DNA from: Promethearchaeota archaeon
GTDB lineage: Archaea > Asgardarchaeota > Lokiarchaeia > Sigyniarchaeales > SOKP01
Assembly (NCBI GenBank): GCA_016840165.1
Contig: JAEOSU010000080.1
Coordinates: 32,001 to 96,000 of the forward strand
DNA: 64,000 bases
Reading direction: 5' to 3'
Part shown: piece after piece, positions 31,811 through 59,768 of the stretch
Layout of the letters: every line of letters starts with the position of its first letter
How positions within the stretch are numbered: position 1 is the stretch's first letter
Notes under the pieces: generated by a model
The model's database searches: none
What the model saw: only the letters and a program-made list of their open reading frames with translations
Told to the model about the DNA's origin: nothing
Made by a program: the position numbers and the translations under genes

Positions 31811-33550
31811 TTAAGCACTAAAATAGCACGGATAGAAGTAGTTGTAGCCCATTCCATTGCTTGGATAACCTTCTAACGTGAAGAACCAAGCGTCATGGTT
31901 TCTACCGACATAACCGAATGCCCAGGGCTGTAGGTCTTCCACAACATATTGTTGTAGATTCTTGTAGATCAGTTCTCGTGCTGTTTGGTCGGTTTCTTCA
32001 AGTCCAGCTAACATATAAGCTTCTAAGGTTGGATCATTAATCTGAGCCGAATTTGAAGACGAATAATTAGCCATTAATGAATTGACATAGTTGCTTGGAT
32101 CATTATAGTCTGGCATCCATCCAATAAACCATATTTGTAATGCATTCCATCCTCTTAATCCAGGATAGCCTTCGGCAGTTAAATCTCTGTTATACAGACG
32201 GTCAAGATATGGATCCCATTCTTGGCCAGCATCTTCCACATTAATTCCGATATAACTGAAATCATTTTCAAGTAATACTAACATATCTTCTCGGAATTTA
32301 TTTCCTAGATTATATGTGAAGTTTACCGTCAAGAAGGGGGTACCTGATTCGGCAACAGCAATCCATTCTGCATCTGTGGTAAAGCCTACTCCAAAGCCCA
32401 TTTGGGTCATAAAACTTCTTGCCTTAGTAAGGTTTAAGACTGGTACATCAAATGACCAATCGGCATATTGAATTCCTAATGGGATTGGTGACTTTAACCT
32501 TACTGCTTCGCCTTCCAAGAGCTCCTCGATCATATAATCATAATCAATTGCCCAGGACATCGCGCTTCTCCATGTTTTATTTATCATTAGATTATTGAAA
32601 CCTAAATATTGGGTTATAGTACCAGGTCCAGCCTCGTACAGATCAATATTAGGTTCGGCTCTCATAGTATCATAGTAAGAGGGATGAGGTGAGTCTAGAA
32701 TATTAACATCTCCGGCTAAAAGTGCATTATTTCGTGCATCCGAATCTTGAATAACGGAGAAGAATAACTCTTCTACTGCACCAGCGCCTCTCCAATAATC
32801 GTCATTTCGTACAAATTTGGCTTCTACTCCCGCAATATAATATTGGAATTTCCAAGGTCCGGTTCCTGAAACTGTCTCGGCAGTAGCTCCAGACATACCT
32901 TCACTGATGTAATCATCAGCTGGGGTAATACTTGGATCTAACATCATCGACGCAGTAAAGGTCATAAGAGGTAAGAACACACCATATGGTTTGTTCAATA
33001 CGAATTTGACGGTATACTCATCAATAATTTCTGTATGGTTTAAAACAGAAGTTCCATCAGGCCACTGATAGAGACATGTTATAATAGACTCACCATAGAC
33101 GGTGGATCCAAGACCAGATCCAGGTTGAGCACCGGTTAAGTTCGTCAGATAGAGTAACCTATCCATCGAGAATTTAACTGATGTGGCGTTAAAATGATAA
33201 CCAGTGTGAAAATCTACGTCTTGTTGAAGGGTTACCGTAAGGTTGGCACCACTCCAAGTACCAAAATCCATTGCTAGTCTTGGAATCATCGGTACATCTG
33301 GATGGCTTAAGTTATAGGCCCATAAGCCTTCCCAGACTTGATAGGCGTAATCGAATGAAGCACTATCCCACATATACTGTGGATCTGAATCAGCAGGACC
33401 GTACATTGTTCCAAATATGATATTGGAAGGAAATTCTGGTGGTAGTATTTGGAGACCTAATTGTACTCCAAAAATTATGTTTCCGACACCAGATGCAACT
33501 AAAGCAATAGCAAGGACTATAATTGCTACGTTCTTTTTTTCCATTTCCAT
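31811..33550 (-). CDS. dppA: Oligopeptide ABC transporter substrate-binding protein (family 5), N-terminal membrane anchor
   Basis: DPQ..WD, EGL, PRLA, GTGPWKF, RNDDYW and GWMPDYNDP motifs. Confidence 0.93.
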   Translation of the reverse strand: MEMEKKNVAIIVLAIALVASGVGNIIFGVQLGLQILPPEFPSNIIFGTMYGPADSDPQYMWDSASFDYAYQVWEGLWAYNLSHPDVPMIPRLAMDFGTWSGANLTVTLQQDVDFHTGYHFNATSVKFSMDRLLYLTNLTGAQPGSGLGSTVYGESIITCLYQWPDGTSVLNHTEIIDEYTVKFVLNKPYGVFLPLMTFTASMMLDPSITPADDYISEGMSGATAETVSGTGPWKFQYYIAGVEAKFVRNDDYWRGAGAVEELFFSVIQDSDARNNALLAGDVNILDSPHPSYYDTMRAEPNIDLYEAGPGTITQYLGFNNLMINKTWRSAMSWAIDYDYMIEELLEGEAVRLKSPIPLGIQYADWSFDVPVLNLTKARSFMTQMGFGVGFTTDAEWIAVAESGTPFLTVNFTYNLGNKFREDMLVLLENDFSYIGINVEDAGQEWDPYLDRLYNRDLTAEGYPGLRGWNALQIWFIGWMPDYNDPSNYVNSLMANYSSSNSAQINDPTLEAYMLAGLEETDQTARELIYKNLQQYVVEDLQPWAFGYVGRNHDAWFFTLEGYPSNGMGYNYFYPCYFSA

Positions 33551-49674: not shown

Positions 49675-50046
49675 TTGTCTGAAAATATAAGCGAACTCAC
49701 TGATTTACTGAGAAAATTATCTGCGGTTAATTCTGACATAGAGGGCTCGGCAATAGTTAGTGTTCAGGGACTTCCGATATGTGACGTGTTGAGTAGAGAT
49801 GTTAATTCTGGGATAGTAAGTGCAATGTCAGCAGCAATTCAGAGTGTTTCAGAACGAGCGGTAGAGGAGCTTGATAGGGGAGATCTTAAAAGAATCCTTA
49901 TTGAGGGGGTTAATGGTATTATTATTCTTTCAAAAGCAGGAGAGAATGCGATTTTATGTACTTTGTGTAATGCTAATGCAAGTTTAGGGATGGTCTTTTT
50001 AAATATTCAAAGTGTTTCAAACCGTATTGCCGCACTTTTAGATTAA
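49675..50046 (+). CDS. Roadblock/LC7 (MglB-like) protein
   Basis: IEGSAIVSVQGLPI, SAMSAA, ILIEGVNG and ASLGMV motifs. Confidence 0.92.
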   Translation: MSENISELTDLLRKLSAVNSDIEGSAIVSVQGLPICDVLSRDVNSGIVSAMSAAIQSVSERAVEELDRGDLKRILIEGVNGIIILSKAGENAILCTLCNANASLGMVFLNIQSVSNRIAALLD

Positions 50047-50097: not shown

Positions 50098-53000
50098 TCA
50101 TCCATTCTTTGAACCCTCATGATCATCTTTTTGCGAGTAAAGCAAGTCTGGATAGATAAAGTTAAACTCTTGACTAAATAATGTATGATTTGACCATTGC
50201 TTTTTTCGTTTACTCCAGATTAAGTTGGTGAGAGGGTTATAGTTATCAAGAATCCGATTATTGCCAATAATTGATTTCAAGAAAAAATCACCATCCACTA
50301 AATCCGTTAATATTAAATATTTCTCAACTTTGAGATATTGAAACACATATTCGAAGACTTGTAAAAATTCCGCAAGCTCACATTCGGGTAAATATAATTT
50401 AACCATCAAACCCTTAACGATGGTCTTTTTCTCATCGAATCCATGAATGTAATATTCACCTTTAATATCATATAAATGGACTAAGTTAAAATATTGAAAG
50501 ATATTCTTTAAGATGGGGAGAGCTTCACTTTTAATATTGAACAAGAAAAAGTGGATTGCTTCCTTGAATGCGAGATTTTTAAAAGTGATATAGGGCCATA
50601 CAAATTTGTTTTTGATAAGGAACTTGATCTTCTCAAATATTGATTGTGAATTAAAAGTCAACTTCTTTTTCACATCAACGGATTCACCGTTATAGACTTC
50701 AGTCAACAATTTGAATGCCCTTGTATCGGGTCCAGCATATTCTAGTCCATTTGCTTTATTTAATGCTAATCGCTTTAATTCTGAGTTTTGAAAACTATAT
50801 CTAGGATTAAAAAGCATGTTTTGAACATACATTCTAAAAGTTTTAGAGTCAAAGTACCAACCATCGGAGCCTAAATTAGTATTGAACTGAACAATTTGGG
50901 AAAATGATTCAATTTTAAACAAACAATACTCACGAAGTTTATTTTGACCCCGTAGCCAGTTAAGGTAGGAAGTATTCGGGTCATTATACGGAAAAAGATA
51001 ATTAATCAATAATGAACTGGAGCTATTGATTGAGACGTTATAGTGAATTTTTTGAAAAGTATTAGTGAGCAAGAGTTTTAAATCTATCTCTGCAAAATTA
51101 AACGGGGTAATATATAAGAAATACTGGGAGAGCCCAAACTTGTGAAATAATGGTAATAATCGAATTGAATCAATATAATGATGAAAAAATCGTTCTCTTT
51201 GGGCGATTTTATACTCTTCCATATCCGAAAAATATTCTTCAAGATGATGATTGAATTGTAACAAAAGACGCAGATCCTCCATCTCAAACGAAATATCTTC
51301 TGAACGAAGGCGAGTAAGAACCGTTTCGATAAGTGTTTTCATACCCTTATTCCTCGGCCATAATTTTATGCCATTGACTGAAATCTCAGTAAACGTGGTG
51401 GTCAGCTCGCCCAACACTTTTTGAATAAAGGTATAATATTCAGAAAATAAATCACTAGTATAGAAAAATTCTTTTTTAGTAAAATCATAAAAATCTTTTC
51501 GAGTAAAAGTTTCTAAAAATCCCGTCCATGGATAGCGTTTGAAAGATATAATATTTTCCTTGAACATACTATTCAATGCTGATAAAAAAATTACTTTTTC
51601 ATCACTTATCATATTCGGAATATATAATGACAAAGAGATATATTCTTCATCCGTTGAGAGATCAACTGTTTCATAGTAATAGATTTCTGGAAAATAGCTT
51701 TTTAGTTTTAGAATCGTCTCTTTTACCTCTAGATTACTTTTTAGGATAATATCCGGGAAATAATGAGCCATCCATGGGATGACTGTATTTATTAAATATG
51801 GTTTAAGAATCTGCGGTTCTTTTTTAATAAATTCCTCGAACAAAAGATTAATTGTTTTGTAGGATATCTCGTGAAGATTTGTCCTTGTTTGAAGCTCTCG
51901 AATACGTTCCTTCTTTACACTAATAATTTTTTCTAATGCTTCGGGCTTTGCAATGAGTTGTTTAATGGTGCTAATACTGAAGATTTTTAAGTTTGAACAA
52001 CCATTTAAGAACTTATGAAAAAATTGAAGCCGTTCTACCTCTTTGTGATATTTTTCATTAGCATTTAAATAATCTAAAAACAATTTTTTGAAGTCGTATG
52101 AATCTGTATTAATATCACTGAAGACTCCGTTAGTATCAATTAGCTGCAAAACGTTTTCTTTCTCAACAAACTCTTTAAATTGAATAATATTGAACAAATT
52201 CGATTTTTTTTCAATAATTCGAAAGTAATTGAGCCATTTTTCTAATTCCTCTATGATATAGAAAAACCCAAAATTGCGATTTCTCTCTAAAAAGCCTTGA
52301 AAATCCTTACGAAGGATGGAGGAGACGCGTAAACTCTCTAAACACTCCTCCAATTCTTTAGTGATATTATTTTGGTCAATAATAAAATCATAAAAATCCG
52401 ATTTTATTATGGAGGAAAGCTCCTTACTCCGGGAAAACCCTAATCCTATATACGAGTAAAATCGAACCCGATCCAAAATCAAAAATTTTAGAAGTGTTAA
52501 TCGGGAATTCACAAATTTGTTATGGTATTTTAGTGTAAACTCAAGTTCGTAGTCTTTTGATCCATTTTTAAGGTTTGGTTTAAGTATCTGGCCCTCTTTA
52601 TATGAGTCCAAGAAATAACGTAAATTCAAATTAAAAGTATAATTTTTTGCGAGGGAACAATATTTGTGAATAATATAGCCAGATTGTTCCATTTTATCGA
52701 GCATAGAGAGTAAATCTTTAATGTAAACCCGCGGAATTACAAAATATGAAAACATTTCTACCGCAAAATTGGTAATTGATAACTTTGGCATAACGATAAA
52801 TGGCATTTTATAGATAATTTTATCAATTTGAGCTTTATCTAACTGGGGATTGAATTTCAGACAGCACGCAATTACCGCCATATCCATTGCCTTCCAATCA
52901 GAATAATAGCTGGGAGCGATTCGACCAGACTTATTGATCCAGCGAAGATTTTTTTGAAATTTTCGGTAGCTTAACTCTGTTTTAATAATCCCTTGCTCTT

Positions 53001-53730
53001 TATATTTTGTAAAATATTCATTATATCCTTCCAATGTATCAACATTTTTTGCTCGATAAAATATCTGAGTCAAGACTCGTAGCGATTCGGTAATCTCATT
53101 ATTATTTATTCGATAGGAGGGTTTTTTAAAAGCCGAATCAAGCATATCCAGTAGTAATTGGGGTACCTCATCAAGATTCAGATTTGAGTATTGCCTGATA
53201 CATTCAAAGAAGTATTGTAAAGGAGTTTTCGAATCCAATTCTTTTAATTCGAGGAATTTCTCAAAGCGAAATTTATACTTTTCCTTTGAATAGCGAATAT
53301 ATCTTTCTCGAGCATTTAAAATCCATTCTTCAAGGAAATCAAATTCCTGTAAAGCAATCTCAACCAATTGTATAATAGCATAATCAATTAAATTAGAGTC
53401 TTTTAGGGCATCTGGAACAAAAGAAAAATAAGCACCTTGAAGTAGATAGTAAGGAAAGAACTTTTGATATTCCTTAAAGAGTTTGATATGGTATATTCCC
53501 TCTTCGACATATCTCATCACCCCATAAGAGAATAATTCGCCATCTGTTTCAAGATTTTCAATTTCGTCAAGGATATGTATCCTAAATTTTTTGTTAATTA
53601 CCTCTAAATTAATATAGGCGGTTAGATGGTTTATTAGGTTAAGGAAAATTTGATAAAATTGATTCTCATCATCGATTGTTGTCGCATTTTTCAATTGATT
53701 AAAATTCGGAGGATTAACCAAGCTCATCAA
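50098..53730 (-). CDS. Large hypothetical protein, probably tandem winged-helix/Lrp-AsnC-like modules
   Basis: 1210-aa ORF with four recurring P-x(4-6)-hydrophobic strand...(Y/F)xP units. Confidence 0.6.
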   Translation of the reverse strand: MMSLVNPPNFNQLKNATTIDDENQFYQIFLNLINHLTAYINLEVINKKFRIHILDEIENLETDGELFSYGVMRYVEEGIYHIKLFKEYQKFFPYYLLQGAYFSFVPDALKDSNLIDYAIIQLVEIALQEFDFLEEWILNARERYIRYSKEKYKFRFEKFLELKELDSKTPLQYFFECIRQYSNLNLDEVPQLLLDMLDSAFKKPSYRINNNEITESLRVLTQIFYRAKNVDTLEGYNEYFTKYKEQGIIKTELSYRKFQKNLRWINKSGRIAPSYYSDWKAMDMAVIACCLKFNPQLDKAQIDKIIYKMPFIVMPKLSITNFAVEMFSYFVIPRVYIKDLLSMLDKMEQSGYIIHKYCSLAKNYTFNLNLRYFLDSYKEGQILKPNLKNGSKDYELEFTLKYHNKFVNSRLTLLKFLILDRVRFYSYIGLGFSRSKELSSIIKSDFYDFIIDQNNITKELEECLESLRVSSILRKDFQGFLERNRNFGFFYIIEELEKWLNYFRIIEKKSNLFNIIQFKEFVEKENVLQLIDTNGVFSDINTDSYDFKKLFLDYLNANEKYHKEVERLQFFHKFLNGCSNLKIFSISTIKQLIAKPEALEKIISVKKERIRELQTRTNLHEISYKTINLLFEEFIKKEPQILKPYLINTVIPWMAHYFPDIILKSNLEVKETILKLKSYFPEIYYYETVDLSTDEEYISLSLYIPNMISDEKVIFLSALNSMFKENIISFKRYPWTGFLETFTRKDFYDFTKKEFFYTSDLFSEYYTFIQKVLGELTTTFTEISVNGIKLWPRNKGMKTLIETVLTRLRSEDISFEMEDLRLLLQFNHHLEEYFSDMEEYKIAQRERFFHHYIDSIRLLPLFHKFGLSQYFLYITPFNFAEIDLKLLLTNTFQKIHYNVSINSSSSLLINYLFPYNDPNTSYLNWLRGQNKLREYCLFKIESFSQIVQFNTNLGSDGWYFDSKTFRMYVQNMLFNPRYSFQNSELKRLALNKANGLEYAGPDTRAFKLLTEVYNGESVDVKKKLTFNSQSIFEKIKFLIKNKFVWPYITFKNLAFKEAIHFFLFNIKSEALPILKNIFQYFNLVHLYDIKGEYYIHGFDEKKTIVKGLMVKLYLPECELAEFLQVFEYVFQYLKVEKYLILTDLVDGDFFLKSIIGNNRILDNYNPLTNLIWSKRKKQWSNHTLFSQEFNFIYPDLLYSQKDDHEGSKNG

Positions 53731-53942
53731 CTACTATATTTCATTTTGTCTAGCATACTATATGGAGAGGTTTGTTTTAAGTTTTTTTATCCAATTATAT
53801 CATTTATCTTATAATTTTCTTCATTTTTAAAGAAAAATTAGATCTATTCAATTGGAAAAGATATAGGATTTGTATATTATTGTAAGATTTATATATAACT
53901 TCTTTCTTGATTTTTATAATAATTCAATTTTGTGATATTAAA

Positions 53943-54638
53943 ATGGTTTCACCAATAGGTTGGCTTGATGGATTAACTGCATCAGGTATAATCCTTTCCT
54001 CAGTTATTTTTGGATTGTTATCGCTCTATAAAGCAAAAAAATTACATGCAAAATTACTCGCTATTGCCGCTCTTACGATGTTTTTTGTTGGCTGTTTATG
54101 GTTAGGTCCTTTTGTAGATTTCATTATGGTACTTTTTTTTAATACAAATTTAAGCGAGAATATATATTATTCTGTCCTCAGCTATACTAATGTCGCTCCG
54201 GCATTAATTTTTGCGATGTATCTTGGAGGCTCCCTTCTCTTACCTAAAAGAAAATGGATAATCGTTGGAATTTATATCATTTTGGGAGGGATATTCGAAT
54301 ACTTTCTATGGTTTCAGAATGCTCAGTCATTTTCATATATTCCTCATGAGGTCGGCGATTTAATTAATGCTGAATTTGTACGTACCTATTATACTTTTTA
54401 CTTTGTTGTCTTATTTTTAATTTCAGCATTAATTTTTCTCGGAATAGGATTTGCAATAAAAGCAAAACAATCAACAGGACAATTACGAAAAAAGTTTTTG
54501 TATTTATCATTAGGGTTTATAATTTTTGTTGTATGTGGTGCTTTAGATTCTGTTCTTACCTTACCAGTAGCAATAGGAGTCATTCGAGCAGTTATGATGA
54601 CTTTCGCTCTTTGGATGTATCTTGGACTTAAAACTTAG
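53943..54638 (+). CDS. Stand-alone 7TM membrane protein (start adjusted to ATG 53943)
   Basis: About seven hydrophobic helices and no soluble output domain. Confidence 0.75.
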   Translation: MVSPIGWLDGLTASGIILSSVIFGLLSLYKAKKLHAKLLAIAALTMFFVGCLWLGPFVDFIMVLFFNTNLSENIYYSVLSYTNVAPALIFAMYLGGSLLLPKRKWIIVGIYIILGGIFEYFLWFQNAQSFSYIPHEVGDLINAEFVRTYYTFYFVVLFLISALIFLGIGFAIKAKQSTGQLRKKFLYLSLGFIIFVVCGALDSVLTLPVAIGVIRAVMMTFALWMYLGLKT

Positions 54639-54677: not shown

Positions 54678-56153
54678 TTATTGTCTGACTTCTTGAATAT
54701 AATCAAAGATCGTATCTACACGTTCTTTTATAGCACCAAATAAGCCCTCTTCTTCTGAAACAACTGAATTAATGGCAGTTTTTAATCCATAGTGACTTTC
54801 AGAAATCAATACTCGTATAGGTAGGGTTAATATCTCACTCATTAGCATCAAAAATTCTTGAACAATTTTAATAATTTTTGGGAATTTTTCTTCAGTCCTC
54901 TCCATAACCGATTGTTCAGATGAAATAAGTCCATCTTCTCGTTCTCTTCTCAATTCCTCCCAGACATTTTCCTTTAATTCGGCAAAATTAATCCCTAAAT
55001 TTTCTAAGGCTAATTGAGCGCCTTCAAATAAATAATTTATATCATCTTTTCCAGTAAATTGTTTTATATTTTCTACCATCTCAGTTGGTGCTAAACCATC
55101 GAGAAATGAGATAAGTAATTGATGATAATCATTAATCACATCAATTGGAATAAATAGTAAACTGAATTCTTTAATTTGTTGGAATAAATATCCTGCAACT
55201 TTCGAAAAGGTTTCATTCGTAAGTACTTTCTCAAGAATACCACCATATTCATTAAATAGATGGATTGCAAGAAAACCTATGATTCTAATCATGTCATCCT
55301 CATAATTTTTAAAATAATCAAAAAAATGCTCTGGTTCCATGTTTAATTTATCTTGGATGATCTCCCGAACCTTGGATTTAATTCCTTCTAAAGGTTCATC
55401 AAGCATCTCCTCAATTTTATCTAAGGAAAGAACATCCTGAAGTGTATCAATCATATCCATTTTTGTCTCTTGGACTGCTTCCTCCTCCAAATCCTCTTCA
55501 AATTTTACATCTGAATTTAATTTATCCTTTATCTTAACTTCTGAGAGTTTTTTCCATTCTAAAGCATCATATATTTTACATTTAAATTGAAGACACTCTT
55601 CTCCTCGTGCCATACATCTTTGTTCAACAATATTTATTCGATAATCATTTCTTTTGATTTTTAAAATAAAATTTGCTACACTTTCAAGCATACCTGTTAA
55701 TCCACAGGCTAAACCCTCGATATTGTCATTTTTTATTTTTTGAAAATCGAAAGTATCAGCATCATCCATACCGTAGCCAGCACATATTGGGCATGTTTTG
55801 ATGCGAATAATATAATCATTATATTTTGATCCTTCGTGAGGGATCTCCTCATAGGTTAAATCTCCTTCCGCAATTTCTTTTCCAAAAACAACTACCCATA
55901 AGAGTTCAAAATAATCAAGTACTTTTTTTGGACTTCCAGGCATGAACTTAAATACACCTGAATGGCGCTCACACGATTCACGTGCCGCTCTTTTCCCGAT
56001 TTCTCGAAGAATAGTGATACTATCTTCTTCATTTTCCGTAATTTCGTTGATTTCTTTTAGAATTTCCCTATAAAGAAGCGTATAAAACAGAGAATTAGTA
56101 TTTCGTCCAAATGCTTTAGTAATTCTTTTTAATAACCATTGAACAGCTCCCAT
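54678..56153 (-). CDS. V4R/TRAPP (Bet3-fold) domain protein with a long helical C-terminal region
   Basis: LREIGKRAA, LWVVVFGKE, CPIC, C..TGMLES and EQRCMARGEECLQF motifs. Confidence 0.7.
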   Translation of the reverse strand: MGAVQWLLKRITKAFGRNTNSLFYTLLYREILKEINEITENEEDSITILREIGKRAARESCERHSGVFKFMPGSPKKVLDYFELLWVVVFGKEIAEGDLTYEEIPHEGSKYNDYIIRIKTCPICAGYGMDDADTFDFQKIKNDNIEGLACGLTGMLESVANFILKIKRNDYRINIVEQRCMARGEECLQFKCKIYDALEWKKLSEVKIKDKLNSDVKFEEDLEEEAVQETKMDMIDTLQDVLSLDKIEEMLDEPLEGIKSKVREIIQDKLNMEPEHFFDYFKNYEDDMIRIIGFLAIHLFNEYGGILEKVLTNETFSKVAGYLFQQIKEFSLLFIPIDVINDYHQLLISFLDGLAPTEMVENIKQFTGKDDINYLFEGAQLALENLGINFAELKENVWEELRREREDGLISSEQSVMERTEEKFPKIIKIVQEFLMLMSEILTLPIRVLISESHYGLKTAINSVVSEEEGLFGAIKERVDTIFDYIQEVRQ

Positions 56154-56155
56154 AC

Positions 56156-56665
56156 CTAATTCCCTCCTATATTATATTTATAGTGATGGATACAAGTTTT
56201 ATTTCCAAGGGATCGCGATTCTGAGACCTCAAATGGTTCTATTGAGAATTCTGGAGTCGGATTTGAGTCTTGGTTGATGATAGAGATGATTTCTGCCATC
56301 ATTGCAATGATAATTTCACACCCAGCTTCATTAATATCATCAAAATGGTATTTACATAGCGCACAGTTACTATCTTTGACTATTATACTGTTTTCTAATT
56401 TATCTAACTCAACTGAAACCCCACTATTTAAAATATTTTTATATAAAGTGGCTAGTATATCCTTAATGTTAGTTAAATTCGCTGAATCGATTGGTTTCCA
56501 GTATTTAATGTAAGTTTGAGCAATGTTTTTTCCCATTCTTCTAAGTTTTGTTTTGATATCTTTAACATCATTTAGCTTCATAAATCGTTCTAGATGATAG
56601 ACTGCATTCCGCAATTGATTCATAGTTGCCTCTGATTGTACTAATTCTTCTCGTGTATAATTCAT
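56156..56665 (-). CDS. V4R/TRAPP (Bet3-fold) protein
   Basis: LRRMGKNIA, CALC, GCEIIIAM and ESRSLGNKTC motifs. Confidence 0.65.
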   Translation of the reverse strand: MNYTREELVQSEATMNQLRNAVYHLERFMKLNDVKDIKTKLRRMGKNIAQTYIKYWKPIDSANLTNIKDILATLYKNILNSGVSVELDKLENSIIVKDSNCALCKYHFDDINEAGCEIIIAMMAEIISIINQDSNPTPEFSIEPFEVSESRSLGNKTCIHHYKYNIGGN

Positions 56666-56865: not shown

Positions 56866-57219
56866 TTACATATTAGCAATTATTTCACGAAGGACTGGTT
56901 CTCCTGCAGCACCAATCATCATGCCATTTCGTACAAGGGGTTGCCCTTGAACTTGTATTGTATGATCTAAAAGTTGACCATTTTTGAAAAAAAGCAATGT
57001 TGGAATCGCAGTTATTCCAAATCGTTGTCCAAGTGGACGATTTTGGTCTAGATCCACTTTTAGGACGTGTATCAATCCTTCCTCATGCAGTTTTTCTAAA
57101 ATAGGACTGACAAATTTACATGGACCACACCAAACGGTATAAATATCTATTATTACTTTTCCCTGTTTCATTTCATTAGAAATTTCCAAGCCATATTCTT
57201 TTAATTCTTCGATATTCAA
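56866..57219 (-). CDS. trxA: Thioredoxin
   Basis: WCGPC, cis-Pro IPTL and FKNG motifs. Confidence 0.93.
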   Translation of the reverse strand: MNIEELKEYGLEISNEMKQGKVIIDIYTVWCGPCKFVSPILEKLHEEGLIHVLKVDLDQNRPLGQRFGITAIPTLLFFKNGQLLDHTIQVQGQPLVRNGMMIGAAGEPVLREIIANM

Positions 57220-58910: not shown

Positions 58911-59768
58911 TTATCCTAAAATTTGATTAAATCTAACAGCTAATTTACCAGGGAATTCCCCAAGATAAGATTGTGGTTCAGCAAATAGTAGATAAAAGTA
59001 AGATTGAAATAACCCATCCACGGTGGGTCCAACACCTGATTTTATTATATAAACCCATATTTCTTCATTAGAGGTAAAAGATTGCCTATATATCCATTCT
59101 AAGGGTGGAATTTCGGGAATAACTCCAACATTTCTTAGTATAGCATCAATAGTCTGGAAAGAATAGTTATTTCCGTAAGAAAAGATAGGAGATAAATCAA
59201 ATGAAGTAATAGATATCCCTAGCAAACCATACTTTTTCATCTCATTCAAATATCCCTCGCATAACTTAGATATTTCTGTTTTATGATCGTTAATGCGATC
59301 CCTCGCAGTTTTATCGTTTAAAATGTCTATTATTTTATCTTCCTCATTTTGTAAAAGTTCCATGGCAGAATCAAGAGGAATTCTGGTTGAGATAATAGAA
59401 TCATAAATCAATTTAATTTTTGCTTTCACAGATTTATGCAAAATATATGGTTCAGTTTGAGTAGTGATCAATACATCACCTTTATAACGTGATAGTTTTT
59501 TCTCTTGTGCCGCTTTATCTTGAGAATGAAATTCGACAATCTCGATTTTTTTATCGATATTGCGTGCGAATTCAAAAAGAGCAGATACTAACCCAGCATT
59601 AAGTTCAAACATACTCGTCCTATCTAAATCCATCTTTATTTCTTTACTATTTTTTGAAAAATCAAAAAATCTTAGAAAAAGATTAACATCCTTCGGAATT
59701 TCTTTTAATTCTAAATTATAGTAAGGAAATCCAGTGTTAGTTATGATTGATAATACGTAGTATGTCAT
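58911..59768 (-). CDS. Hypothetical protein, probable longin-like N-terminal plus roadblock/profilin-like C-terminal domain
   Basis: VLSIITNTGFPYY, LNAGLVSALFEFA and GLLGISITSFDLSPIFS. Confidence 0.5.
   Translation of the reverse strand: MTYYVLSIITNTGFPYYNLELKEIPKDVNLFLRFFDFSKNSKEIKMDLDRTSMFELNAGLVSALFEFARNIDKKIEIVEFHSQDKAAQEKKLSRYKGDVLITTQTEPYILHKSVKAKIKLIYDSIISTRIPLDSAMELLQNEEDKIIDILNDKTARDRINDHKTEISKLCEGYLNEMKKYGLLGISITSFDLSPIFSYGNNYSFQTIDAILRNVGVIPEIPPLEWIYRQSFTSNEEIWVYIIKSGVGPTVDGLFQSYFYLLFAEPQSYLGEFPGKLAVRFNQILG

Follow-up and report, generated by a model that had tools for sequence, protein, structure and literature searches.

Do the Asgard archaea encode a two-subunit forerunner of the eukaryotic TRAPP core, or do the two adjacent genes that resemble one serve another role? 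This question is raised by a gene pair on contig JAEOSU010000080.1 of a Promethearchaeota archaeon (assembly GCA_016840165.1, class Lokiarchaeia), of which we analyzed a stretch of 64,000 nucleotides (positions 32,001 to 96,000 of the contig), here called the window. A first-pass annotation, made from the sequence alone, had read the smaller gene (gene A) as Bet3-like and the larger one (gene B) as Trs31-like, and had suggested that the products are a proto-TRAPP heterodimer intermediate between V4R sensors and TRAPP. Our analysis favors a related reading, to which we assign a probability of roughly 0.55, namely that A and B form a translationally coupled operon for two Bet3/V4R-fold proteins that diverged long ago and would most likely heterodimerize via their first two helices.

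Organization of the Gene Pair

The following features of the pair were derived from the listing of open reading frames (ORFs), from the sequence itself, and from the AlphaFold2 (AF2) models and profile comparisons described below. Coordinates are those of the window.

56156..56665, minus strand: gene A, 169 aa, TRAPPC3/Bet3-fold protein with four cysteines (Cys4) as a candidate Zn site (ORF listing, AF2, profile comparison)
54678..56153, minus strand: gene B as a whole, 491 aa (ORF listing)
55539..56153, minus strand: N-terminal Bet3/V4R-fold domain of gene B, residues ~1-205, with C121, C124, C150, and C180 as candidate Zn ligands
55458..55538, minus strand: acidic variable linker of gene B, residues ~206-232, poorly conserved and gapped in alignments, predicted local distance difference test (pLDDT) value <50 from residue 220
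54678..55457, minus strand: all-helical C-terminal domain (C-domain) of gene B with the stop codon, residues ~233-491, conserved and family-restricted
56154..56167, minus strand: A/B junction with GGAGGG, TAG, a 2-nt gap, and the ATG of B (read from the sequence)

As the first-pass annotation had described, the two ORFs are co-oriented on the minus strand, the large one lying 3' of the small one with a gap of 2 bp, and all of the quoted motifs are present (LRRMGKNIA in A; SLFYTLLYREIL, LREIGKRAA, LWVVVFGKEI, and TGMLESV in B). The stop codon TAG of A (56158-56156) is followed by GT (56155-56154) and the ATG of B (56153-56151), and within the last codons of A there is a GGAGGG sequence (56167-56162), 8 nt ahead of the ATG of B, in a window with a G+C content of ~30%. 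This layout is typical of translational coupling. Both A and B have hundreds of full-length homologues, with identities of 55-96% and 70-90%, respectively, and thus are real genes. The close homologues all come from metagenome-assembled genomes of Loki-type Asgard archaea, and Candidatus Harpocratesius repetitus, whose genome is closed, has an orthologous pair, annotated there as two hypothetical proteins. Neither an NCBIfam scan nor single-sequence searches against the Protein Data Bank (PDB) gave useful matches.

Protein A Is a Counterpart of Thorarchaeota TRAPPC3

The AF2 model of A (pLDDT 86) shows the Bet3 topology of four helices, two strands, a helix, and two further strands. Its best structural matches are the crystallized Thorarchaeota TRAPPC3 (7yh2; Z 15.6, root-mean-square deviation 3.0 over 145 residues) and Bet3 (2cfh_A; Z 14.2), followed by 3cue_B (Z 12.8) and by the V4R sensors and MJ1460 (Z 9.8). 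In profile searches against the PDB, A finds the same Thorarchaeota TRAPPC3 (7yh3/7yh2) with an E-value of 1e-5, or of 4e-8 when a more diverse alignment is used, and hhalign aligns A to the Thorarchaeota TRAPPC3 family with a probability of 97.5% (E 7e-12) and with the four cysteines in register, at a sequence identity of ~14-16%. Thus, A is the Lokiarchaeial counterpart, and a sequence-level relative, of the crystallized protein. The Pfam TRAPP model (PF04051) gives 15.6 bits for A and 22.3 bits for its best orthologue, both below the gathering cut-off of 27 bits, and no match at all for B; the matches to Bet3 and Trs31 motifs that the first-pass annotation had given could not be reproduced as sequence homology. 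Pfam V4R (PF02830, cut-off 31 bits) matches neither A nor B of the window.

The N-Terminal Domain of B Is a Diverged V4R-Like Partner

Residues ~30-210 of B are modeled with pLDDT values of 70-85 and with the same topology as A, in line with the earlier claim that both proteins have the Bet3/V4R fold. Bet3 (2cfh_A) and Thorarchaeota TRAPPC3 (7yh2) are matched equally well (both Z 13.9), followed by other TRAPP chains (Z 11-12, with 3cue_B at 11.3) and PoxR (Z 9.5). For A as well as for the N-terminal domain of B, the top Foldseek/VIA matches are Bet3/TRAPPC3 chains, and the rank order is alike, with Thorarchaeota TRAPPC3 and Bet3 above 3cue_B, which we take to be yeast Trs31. Since the ranking for B is the same as for A, nothing singles out Trs31 for B, and the proposal that the large protein is Trs31/TRAPPC5 was not upheld. 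Of the suggested intermediate position between V4R sensors and TRAPP, it holds that both proteins are structurally nearer to Bet3/TRAPPC3 than to the V4R sensors.

At the profile level, hhalign relates the N-terminal domain of B barely to A (probability 16%, E 0.0017) and to Thorarchaeota TRAPPC3 (5%, E 0.008), the latter value falling short of profile homology to an accepted TRAPP member. Among nine B orthologues, one gives a Pfam V4R match, at E 0.13. The V4R-type proteins encoded next to TRAPPC3 in Thorarchaeia, however, are aligned to the N-terminal domain of B with a probability of 92% (E 5e-7 over 129 columns). By profile comparison, these ~190-aa Pfam-V4R proteins, encoded after Thorarchaeial TRAPPC3, are its nearest apparent kin. 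As judged from the models, the domain is recognizable mainly by structure and does not appear specifically Trs31-like. Many TALE-repeat matches of its profile were discarded as spurious, being sub-threshold repeats of one 27-residue stretch. No eukaryotic chain was matched at sequence level by A or B in the single-sequence and profile searches against the PDB, and the best 120 matches of a search with the Thorarchaeota TRAPPC3 profile contained Thorarchaeial proteins only and no eukaryotic Bet3, Trs31, or Trs33.

The conservation of Cys ligands in both proteins, which had also been claimed, was confirmed within the family. In A, C101, C104, C116, and C158 are kept throughout the family (invariant or nearly so). 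In B, C121, C124, and C180 are invariant and C150 is conserved to at least 90% in the window's own family, and all four are also kept in the deep lineages.

The A-then-B Order Is Conserved Across Two Classes

Among 68 sampled genomes of the window's family, B is present in 65 and A in 64. Both genes also occur in all seven genomes of the sister family and in the single genomes sampled from two other families of the class (1/1 each); in all pairs listed, A comes first and B directly abuts it. With the full-length B profile nothing credible was found in ~225 other Asgard genomes. In one Thorarchaeial locus, the gene directly after TRAPPC3 encodes a 200-aa protein (Pfam V4R, 45 bits) that matches the B profile, and all seven Thorarchaeial loci with enough flanking sequence consist of TRAPPC3 (157-160 aa) followed by a same-strand Pfam-V4R protein (182-219 aa, 33-45 bits). 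A combined B-type profile has matches in 72 of 76 sampled Thorarchaeial genomes, at ~1e-50, and the Thorarchaeial A gene is nearly identical to the crystallized protein (309 bits). Between Lokiarchaeia and Thorarchaeia, like aligns with like (hhalign 97.5% for A-A and 92% for B-B), whereas the A-B cross pairs reach 5-16%. A second TRAPP paralogue (168 aa, Pfam TRAPP 32 bits) was seen 2.5 kb upstream of one Thorarchaeial cassette (L020:1275-1781, plus strand), and the 173-aa ORF after it has no match to the B profile.

In deep Lokiarchaeial genomes the A-then-B cassette is expanded into several paralogous copies: genome G294 carries four cassettes (three additional ones at L035, L036, and L037) and 10 B-type matches, and genome G240 has 7 B-type matches. 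A maximum-likelihood tree was calculated from 36 rows, leaving out one 92-aa fragment and using one V4R protein as outgroup. All A genes form one group (support 94/87), Thorarchaeial and Lokiarchaeial B genes fall together (85/82), and the branching order inside the A half is similar to that inside the B half. Because the tree separates A from B and the inner order is similar, the A-then-B cassette should be older than the split between Lokiarchaeia and Thorarchaeia. The abutting order across genomes and the tree thus bear out the first-pass view of differentiated paralogues that are kept as a pair.

Predicted Heterodimer

Complex prediction covered the A-B pairing only and was carried out with A and residues 1-215 of B. 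It yielded an interaction prediction score from aligned errors (ipSAE) of 0.93 (0.92-0.93 in three runs), whereas the best of three controls scored 0.00. In the calibration, 58 of 80 solved complexes and 2 of 110 mismatched pairs attained the ipSAE mark, counts that hold only roughly here, as the prediction used its own alignments. The runs share at least 97% of the contacts, with a partner pLDDT of at least 89, and the predicted interface is formed by helices 1-2 of both chains. Of the Bet3-Trs31-like heterodimer proposed in the first-pass annotation, the A-B pairing via N-terminal helices is hence predicted, and the Trs31 identity is unsupported. Since the dimers Bet3-Trs31, Bet3-Trs33, and Thorarchaeota TRAPPC3 have already been solved, the score would show likeness rather than binding. 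Taken together, the pair is real and conserved, and on the basis of the model its products probably form a heterodimer.

The C-Terminal Domain of B Is Shared With HAD Phosphatases

The C-domain of B is helical and conserved over its full length, the mean column identity of the whole B alignment being 79%. A C-domain profile retrieves only 51 clusters among 1.84 billion representative proteins, and these show two architectures, in which the domain follows either a Bet3-fold domain or a HAD phosphatase. In the deep Lokiarchaeial genomes G240 and G294, B stands alone, with a length of 193-194 aa, and the C-domain is instead part of a HAD protein whose gene immediately precedes A and B on the same strand:

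L018:5158-6738, minus strand: HAD-IA phosphatase with C-domain (homologous C-terminal part), directly upstream of stand-alone A and B
L017:1-1221, plus strand: HAD-IA phosphatase with C-domain (homologous C-terminal part), directly upstream of stand-alone A and B

As the HAD-C-domain gene adjoins stand-alone A and B, the C-domain is seen to travel with the pair and to have been fused to B in the window's order. As far as sequence can tell, this is a link of the Rosetta-stone style that may connect the phosphatase to the Bet3-fold pair. The phosphatase part is of a generic HAD-IA type (phosphoglycolate phosphatase or PpaX-like) with scores far under the equivalog cut-offs; a specific HAD subfamily assignment was rejected for this reason, and no substrate was deduced.

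Several leads to the nature of the C-domain were discarded. Its AF2 model retrieved only generic helical hairpins (Z 8-9), which is within the noise of helical models. A likeness of B residues 255-360 to the ARL2-binding protein (BART) had an E-value of 0.03 with a profile of close homologues, vanished with the diverse C-domain profile (E up to 10), and was regarded as a chance match. A look-up of the C-domain in the ESM Atlas gave no usable match.

In another lineage (~37% G+C), HAD proteins were seen that bear only the first half of the C-domain. They lie in a conserved block (L028:2369-9674 and L029:428-7733) made up of an 872-aa PlsC-type acyltransferase, the HAD protein with the half C-domain, two DUF2229/HGD-D proteins, and a BcrAD_BadFG ATPase, and at L028 an HTH-V4R regulator is encoded near this block. 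The position of the HAD-half-C-domain gene between the PlsC-type acyltransferase and the HGD-D/BcrAD-type genes gives a faint hint at lipids or acyl-CoA.

Weighing of the Heterodimer Reading

According to the reading that we favor, A would be the Lokiarchaeial TRAPPC3 counterpart and have retained a Cys4 site like the one that binds structural Zn in the Thorarchaeota crystal, and B would correspond to the V4R-type protein whose gene follows TRAPPC3 in Thorarchaeia. The helical C-domain would have been captured by B in the window's order, and in deeper lineages it sits on the HAD-IA phosphatase of the same operon. The A-B heterodimer might then be a scaffold that binds or senses a small, probably hydrophobic, ligand, and the C-domain might be a module that couples the heterodimer to an effector or partner. 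In Thorarchaeota TRAPPC3 the Zn is held by four Cys and was described as structural, and Tran et al. suggested that its internal cavities bind small molecules (PMC10933270); by analogy, we infer that A and B of the window may bind Zn and a ligand as well.

There are, however, several points that weigh against this reading. For the B genes to be a single clade, the root must be placed outside them, and as the sole V4R outgroup is long-branched, the monophyly of B is not secure. The Cys ligands of B are lost in the sister family (Harpocratesius clade), and Thorarchaeial B proteins are devoid of the CxxC; thus, B does not depend on a metal site. The AF2 confidence for the C-domain is low (pLDDT mostly <60), so that it has no confident fold. 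It could also be that the complex score reflects a memory of the solved Bet3-Trs31, Bet3-Trs33, and Thorarchaeota TRAPPC3 dimers. Finally, Thorarchaeota TRAPPC3 crystallizes as a homodimer, and Tran et al. modeled the proteins of strain MK-D1 as homodimers (PMC10933270).

These homodimers, together with V4R sensor domains such as PoxR, which are homodimers too (PMC10933270), would fit the assumption that co-transcription is all that joins A and B, each product being a homodimeric V4R-type sensor or ligand carrier in its own right, with no A-B complex. We consider this unlikely, since the abutting A-then-B order is strict across two classes and in the four paralogous cassettes of one genome, the branching is similar in the A and B trees, and the heterodimer prediction is strong compared to the controls. 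Moreover, eukaryotic Bet3 alone crystallizes as a homodimer, yet it heterodimerizes within TRAPP, and hence a homodimer crystal carries no weight against a partner.

A further explanation takes the Cys4 sites as redox-sensitive zinc switches that are served by a thioredoxin encoded upstream of the pair:

56866..57219, minus strand: thioredoxin gene, ~200 bp upstream of A on the same strand (Pfam Thioredoxin, E 4e-19; context only)

Such a thiol/redox switch would be in agreement with the Cys4 conserved in A and with the presence of the thioredoxin gene, upstream of A and on the same strand, in nine of 13 checked loci of the window's family. It seems very unlikely to us, however, because among the loci checked the gene is absent upstream in the other four family loci as well as in the sister family, the deep lineages, and Thorarchaeia, and because the B cysteines are lost in several lineages. 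The gap of ~200 bp between thioredoxin and A is AT-rich and leaves room for a separate promoter, and the Zn of Thorarchaeota TRAPPC3 was, as stated above, described as structural (PMC10933270).

Neighboring Genes and the Proto-TRAPP Proposal

The remaining genes around the pair were annotated as follows:

49675..50046, plus strand: Roadblock/LC7 gene, convergent, ~4.6 kb downstream of the pair (Pfam E 3e-15)
50098-53730, minus strand: 1210-aa ORF between the Roadblock gene and the 7TM (multi-pass membrane protein) gene, no Pfam or NCBIfam match
53907-54638, plus strand: multi-pass membrane protein, 243 aa, convergent with gene B, position kept only in close relatives (40-69% identity, four loci)
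58911-59768, minus strand: 285-aa protein of an uncharacterized Promethearchaeota family, syntenic in another family genome (58% identity)

The proto-TRAPP proposal states that the pair is an archaeal forerunner of Bet3-Trs31/Trs33 that, together with longin or roadblock proteins, regulates small GTPases of Asgard archaea or exchanges their nucleotide. It draws on the better match of both domains to Bet3-family chains (Z 13.9-15.6) than to V4R sensors (Z 9.5-9.8), on the predicted heterodimer with a Bet3-type interface, and on the Roadblock gene. Orthologues of the latter (85-89% identity) are found close to the pair in two further family loci, where the genes separating them differ. Given a total of just 13 Roadblock matches in the 3.6-Mb genome, the chance of finding one no more than 5 kb to either side of the pair is ~4%, a value calculated post hoc. 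In addition, the gene ahead of TRAPPC3 in Thorarchaeia is always a same-strand one for a protein of 311-371 aa with a winged helix (HTH_47) at its C-terminus (L020:3234-4196, plus strand; L030, L031, L033, L034, L039), for which faint Roadblock matches (E ~0.1 in 2/6) and one faint NPRL3-HTH match were obtained. On the other side, Trs31 is matched no better by B than by A, and the sequence kin of B belong to the V4R family. Roadblock synteny does not extend beyond the family, and the genes in between vary; a longin or GTPase gene conserved beside the pair was not seen in the loci compared, and the partners that do recur in the operon are a HAD phosphatase (in deep lineages) or thioredoxin rather than GTPase parts. 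Thus, the thioredoxin, Roadblock, and Thorarchaeial winged-helix neighbors establish no GTPase link. Overall, the proposal is only partly supported, in that the fold, the pair, and the predicted heterodimer stand and the Trs31 label does not, and as an account of what the pair does it has, in our estimation, a low probability. The 285-aa gene was also considered as a longin partner, but it has no Pfam match, its Atlas leads to roadblock/longin proteins are weak (0.79-0.80), and housekeeping genes intervene, so that it was not included in the unit.

Comparison With Known Systems and Implications

The nearest known relative is Thorarchaeota TRAPPC3 (PDB 7YH2, 7YH3; PMC10933270), with which A shares the fold, profile homology, and four aligned Cys. 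Thorarchaeota TRAPPC3 differs in passing Pfam TRAPP (32 bits, compared to 15.6 for A), and the paper presents it as a homodimer without mention of the adjacent V4R-type partner gene found here (PMC10933270). From the Lokiarchaeial strain MK-D1, a "TRAPPC3" (WP_147663132.1) and a "PoxR-like" protein (WP_147661794.1) have been described by AF2 models with predicted Zn sites (PMC10933270). Like A and B, they comprise a TRAPPC3-like and a V4R-like protein of a member of this class, and they were modeled as homodimers only.

With the Bet3-Trs31 and Bet3-Trs33 dimers of the eukaryotic TRAPP core (2J3R, 2C0J, 2CFH, 3CUE), the pair has in common two diverged Bet3-fold subunits with a predicted pairing via N-terminal helices, and A and the N-terminal domain of B superpose on Bet3 at Z 13.9-14.2. 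Unlike the TRAPP core, A and B have no longin subunits or Rab linked to them, B bears an extra 260-residue domain, and both proteins have candidate Cys4 sites, whereas mouse TRAPPC3 has a hydrogen bond instead (PMC10933270). The V4R domains (PF02830; the sensors PoxR, MopR, and DmpR, and MJ1460) share the superfamily fold (Z 9.5-9.8) and a Cys-rich candidate metal site with A and B, and the Thorarchaeial orthologues of B pass Pfam V4R (33-45 bits). In contrast to the V4R sensors, A and B are devoid of a DNA-binding or AAA+ output domain and occur as a fixed pair, whereas the sensor domain is found singly.

The TRAPPC3-like proteins of Asgard archaea are invoked as a sign that some trafficking components are older than eukaryotes, but have been studied as lone homodimers; in the literature that we searched they are described as such, and neither the partner gene nor the fusion is mentioned. 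Three results alter what should be expressed, crystallized, and assayed, namely the fixed and anciently diverged partner gene, the predicted heterodimer, and the family-restricted domain of the partner, which is otherwise found on a phosphatase. It might even be that the asymmetric Bet3-family heterodimers of eukaryotic TRAPP descend from the Asgard cassette of a TRAPPC3-like and a V4R-like gene, although we regard this as quite improbable. If it were true, the two-subunit design would predate eukaryotes, perhaps already acting on small GTPases together with roadblock or longin proteins, and the C-domain and its HAD link would record an earlier role in the handling of ligands or lipids. With the A/B cassette at hand, the archaeal origin of the asymmetric dimers of the TRAPP core becomes a concrete question of co-expression and phylogeny.

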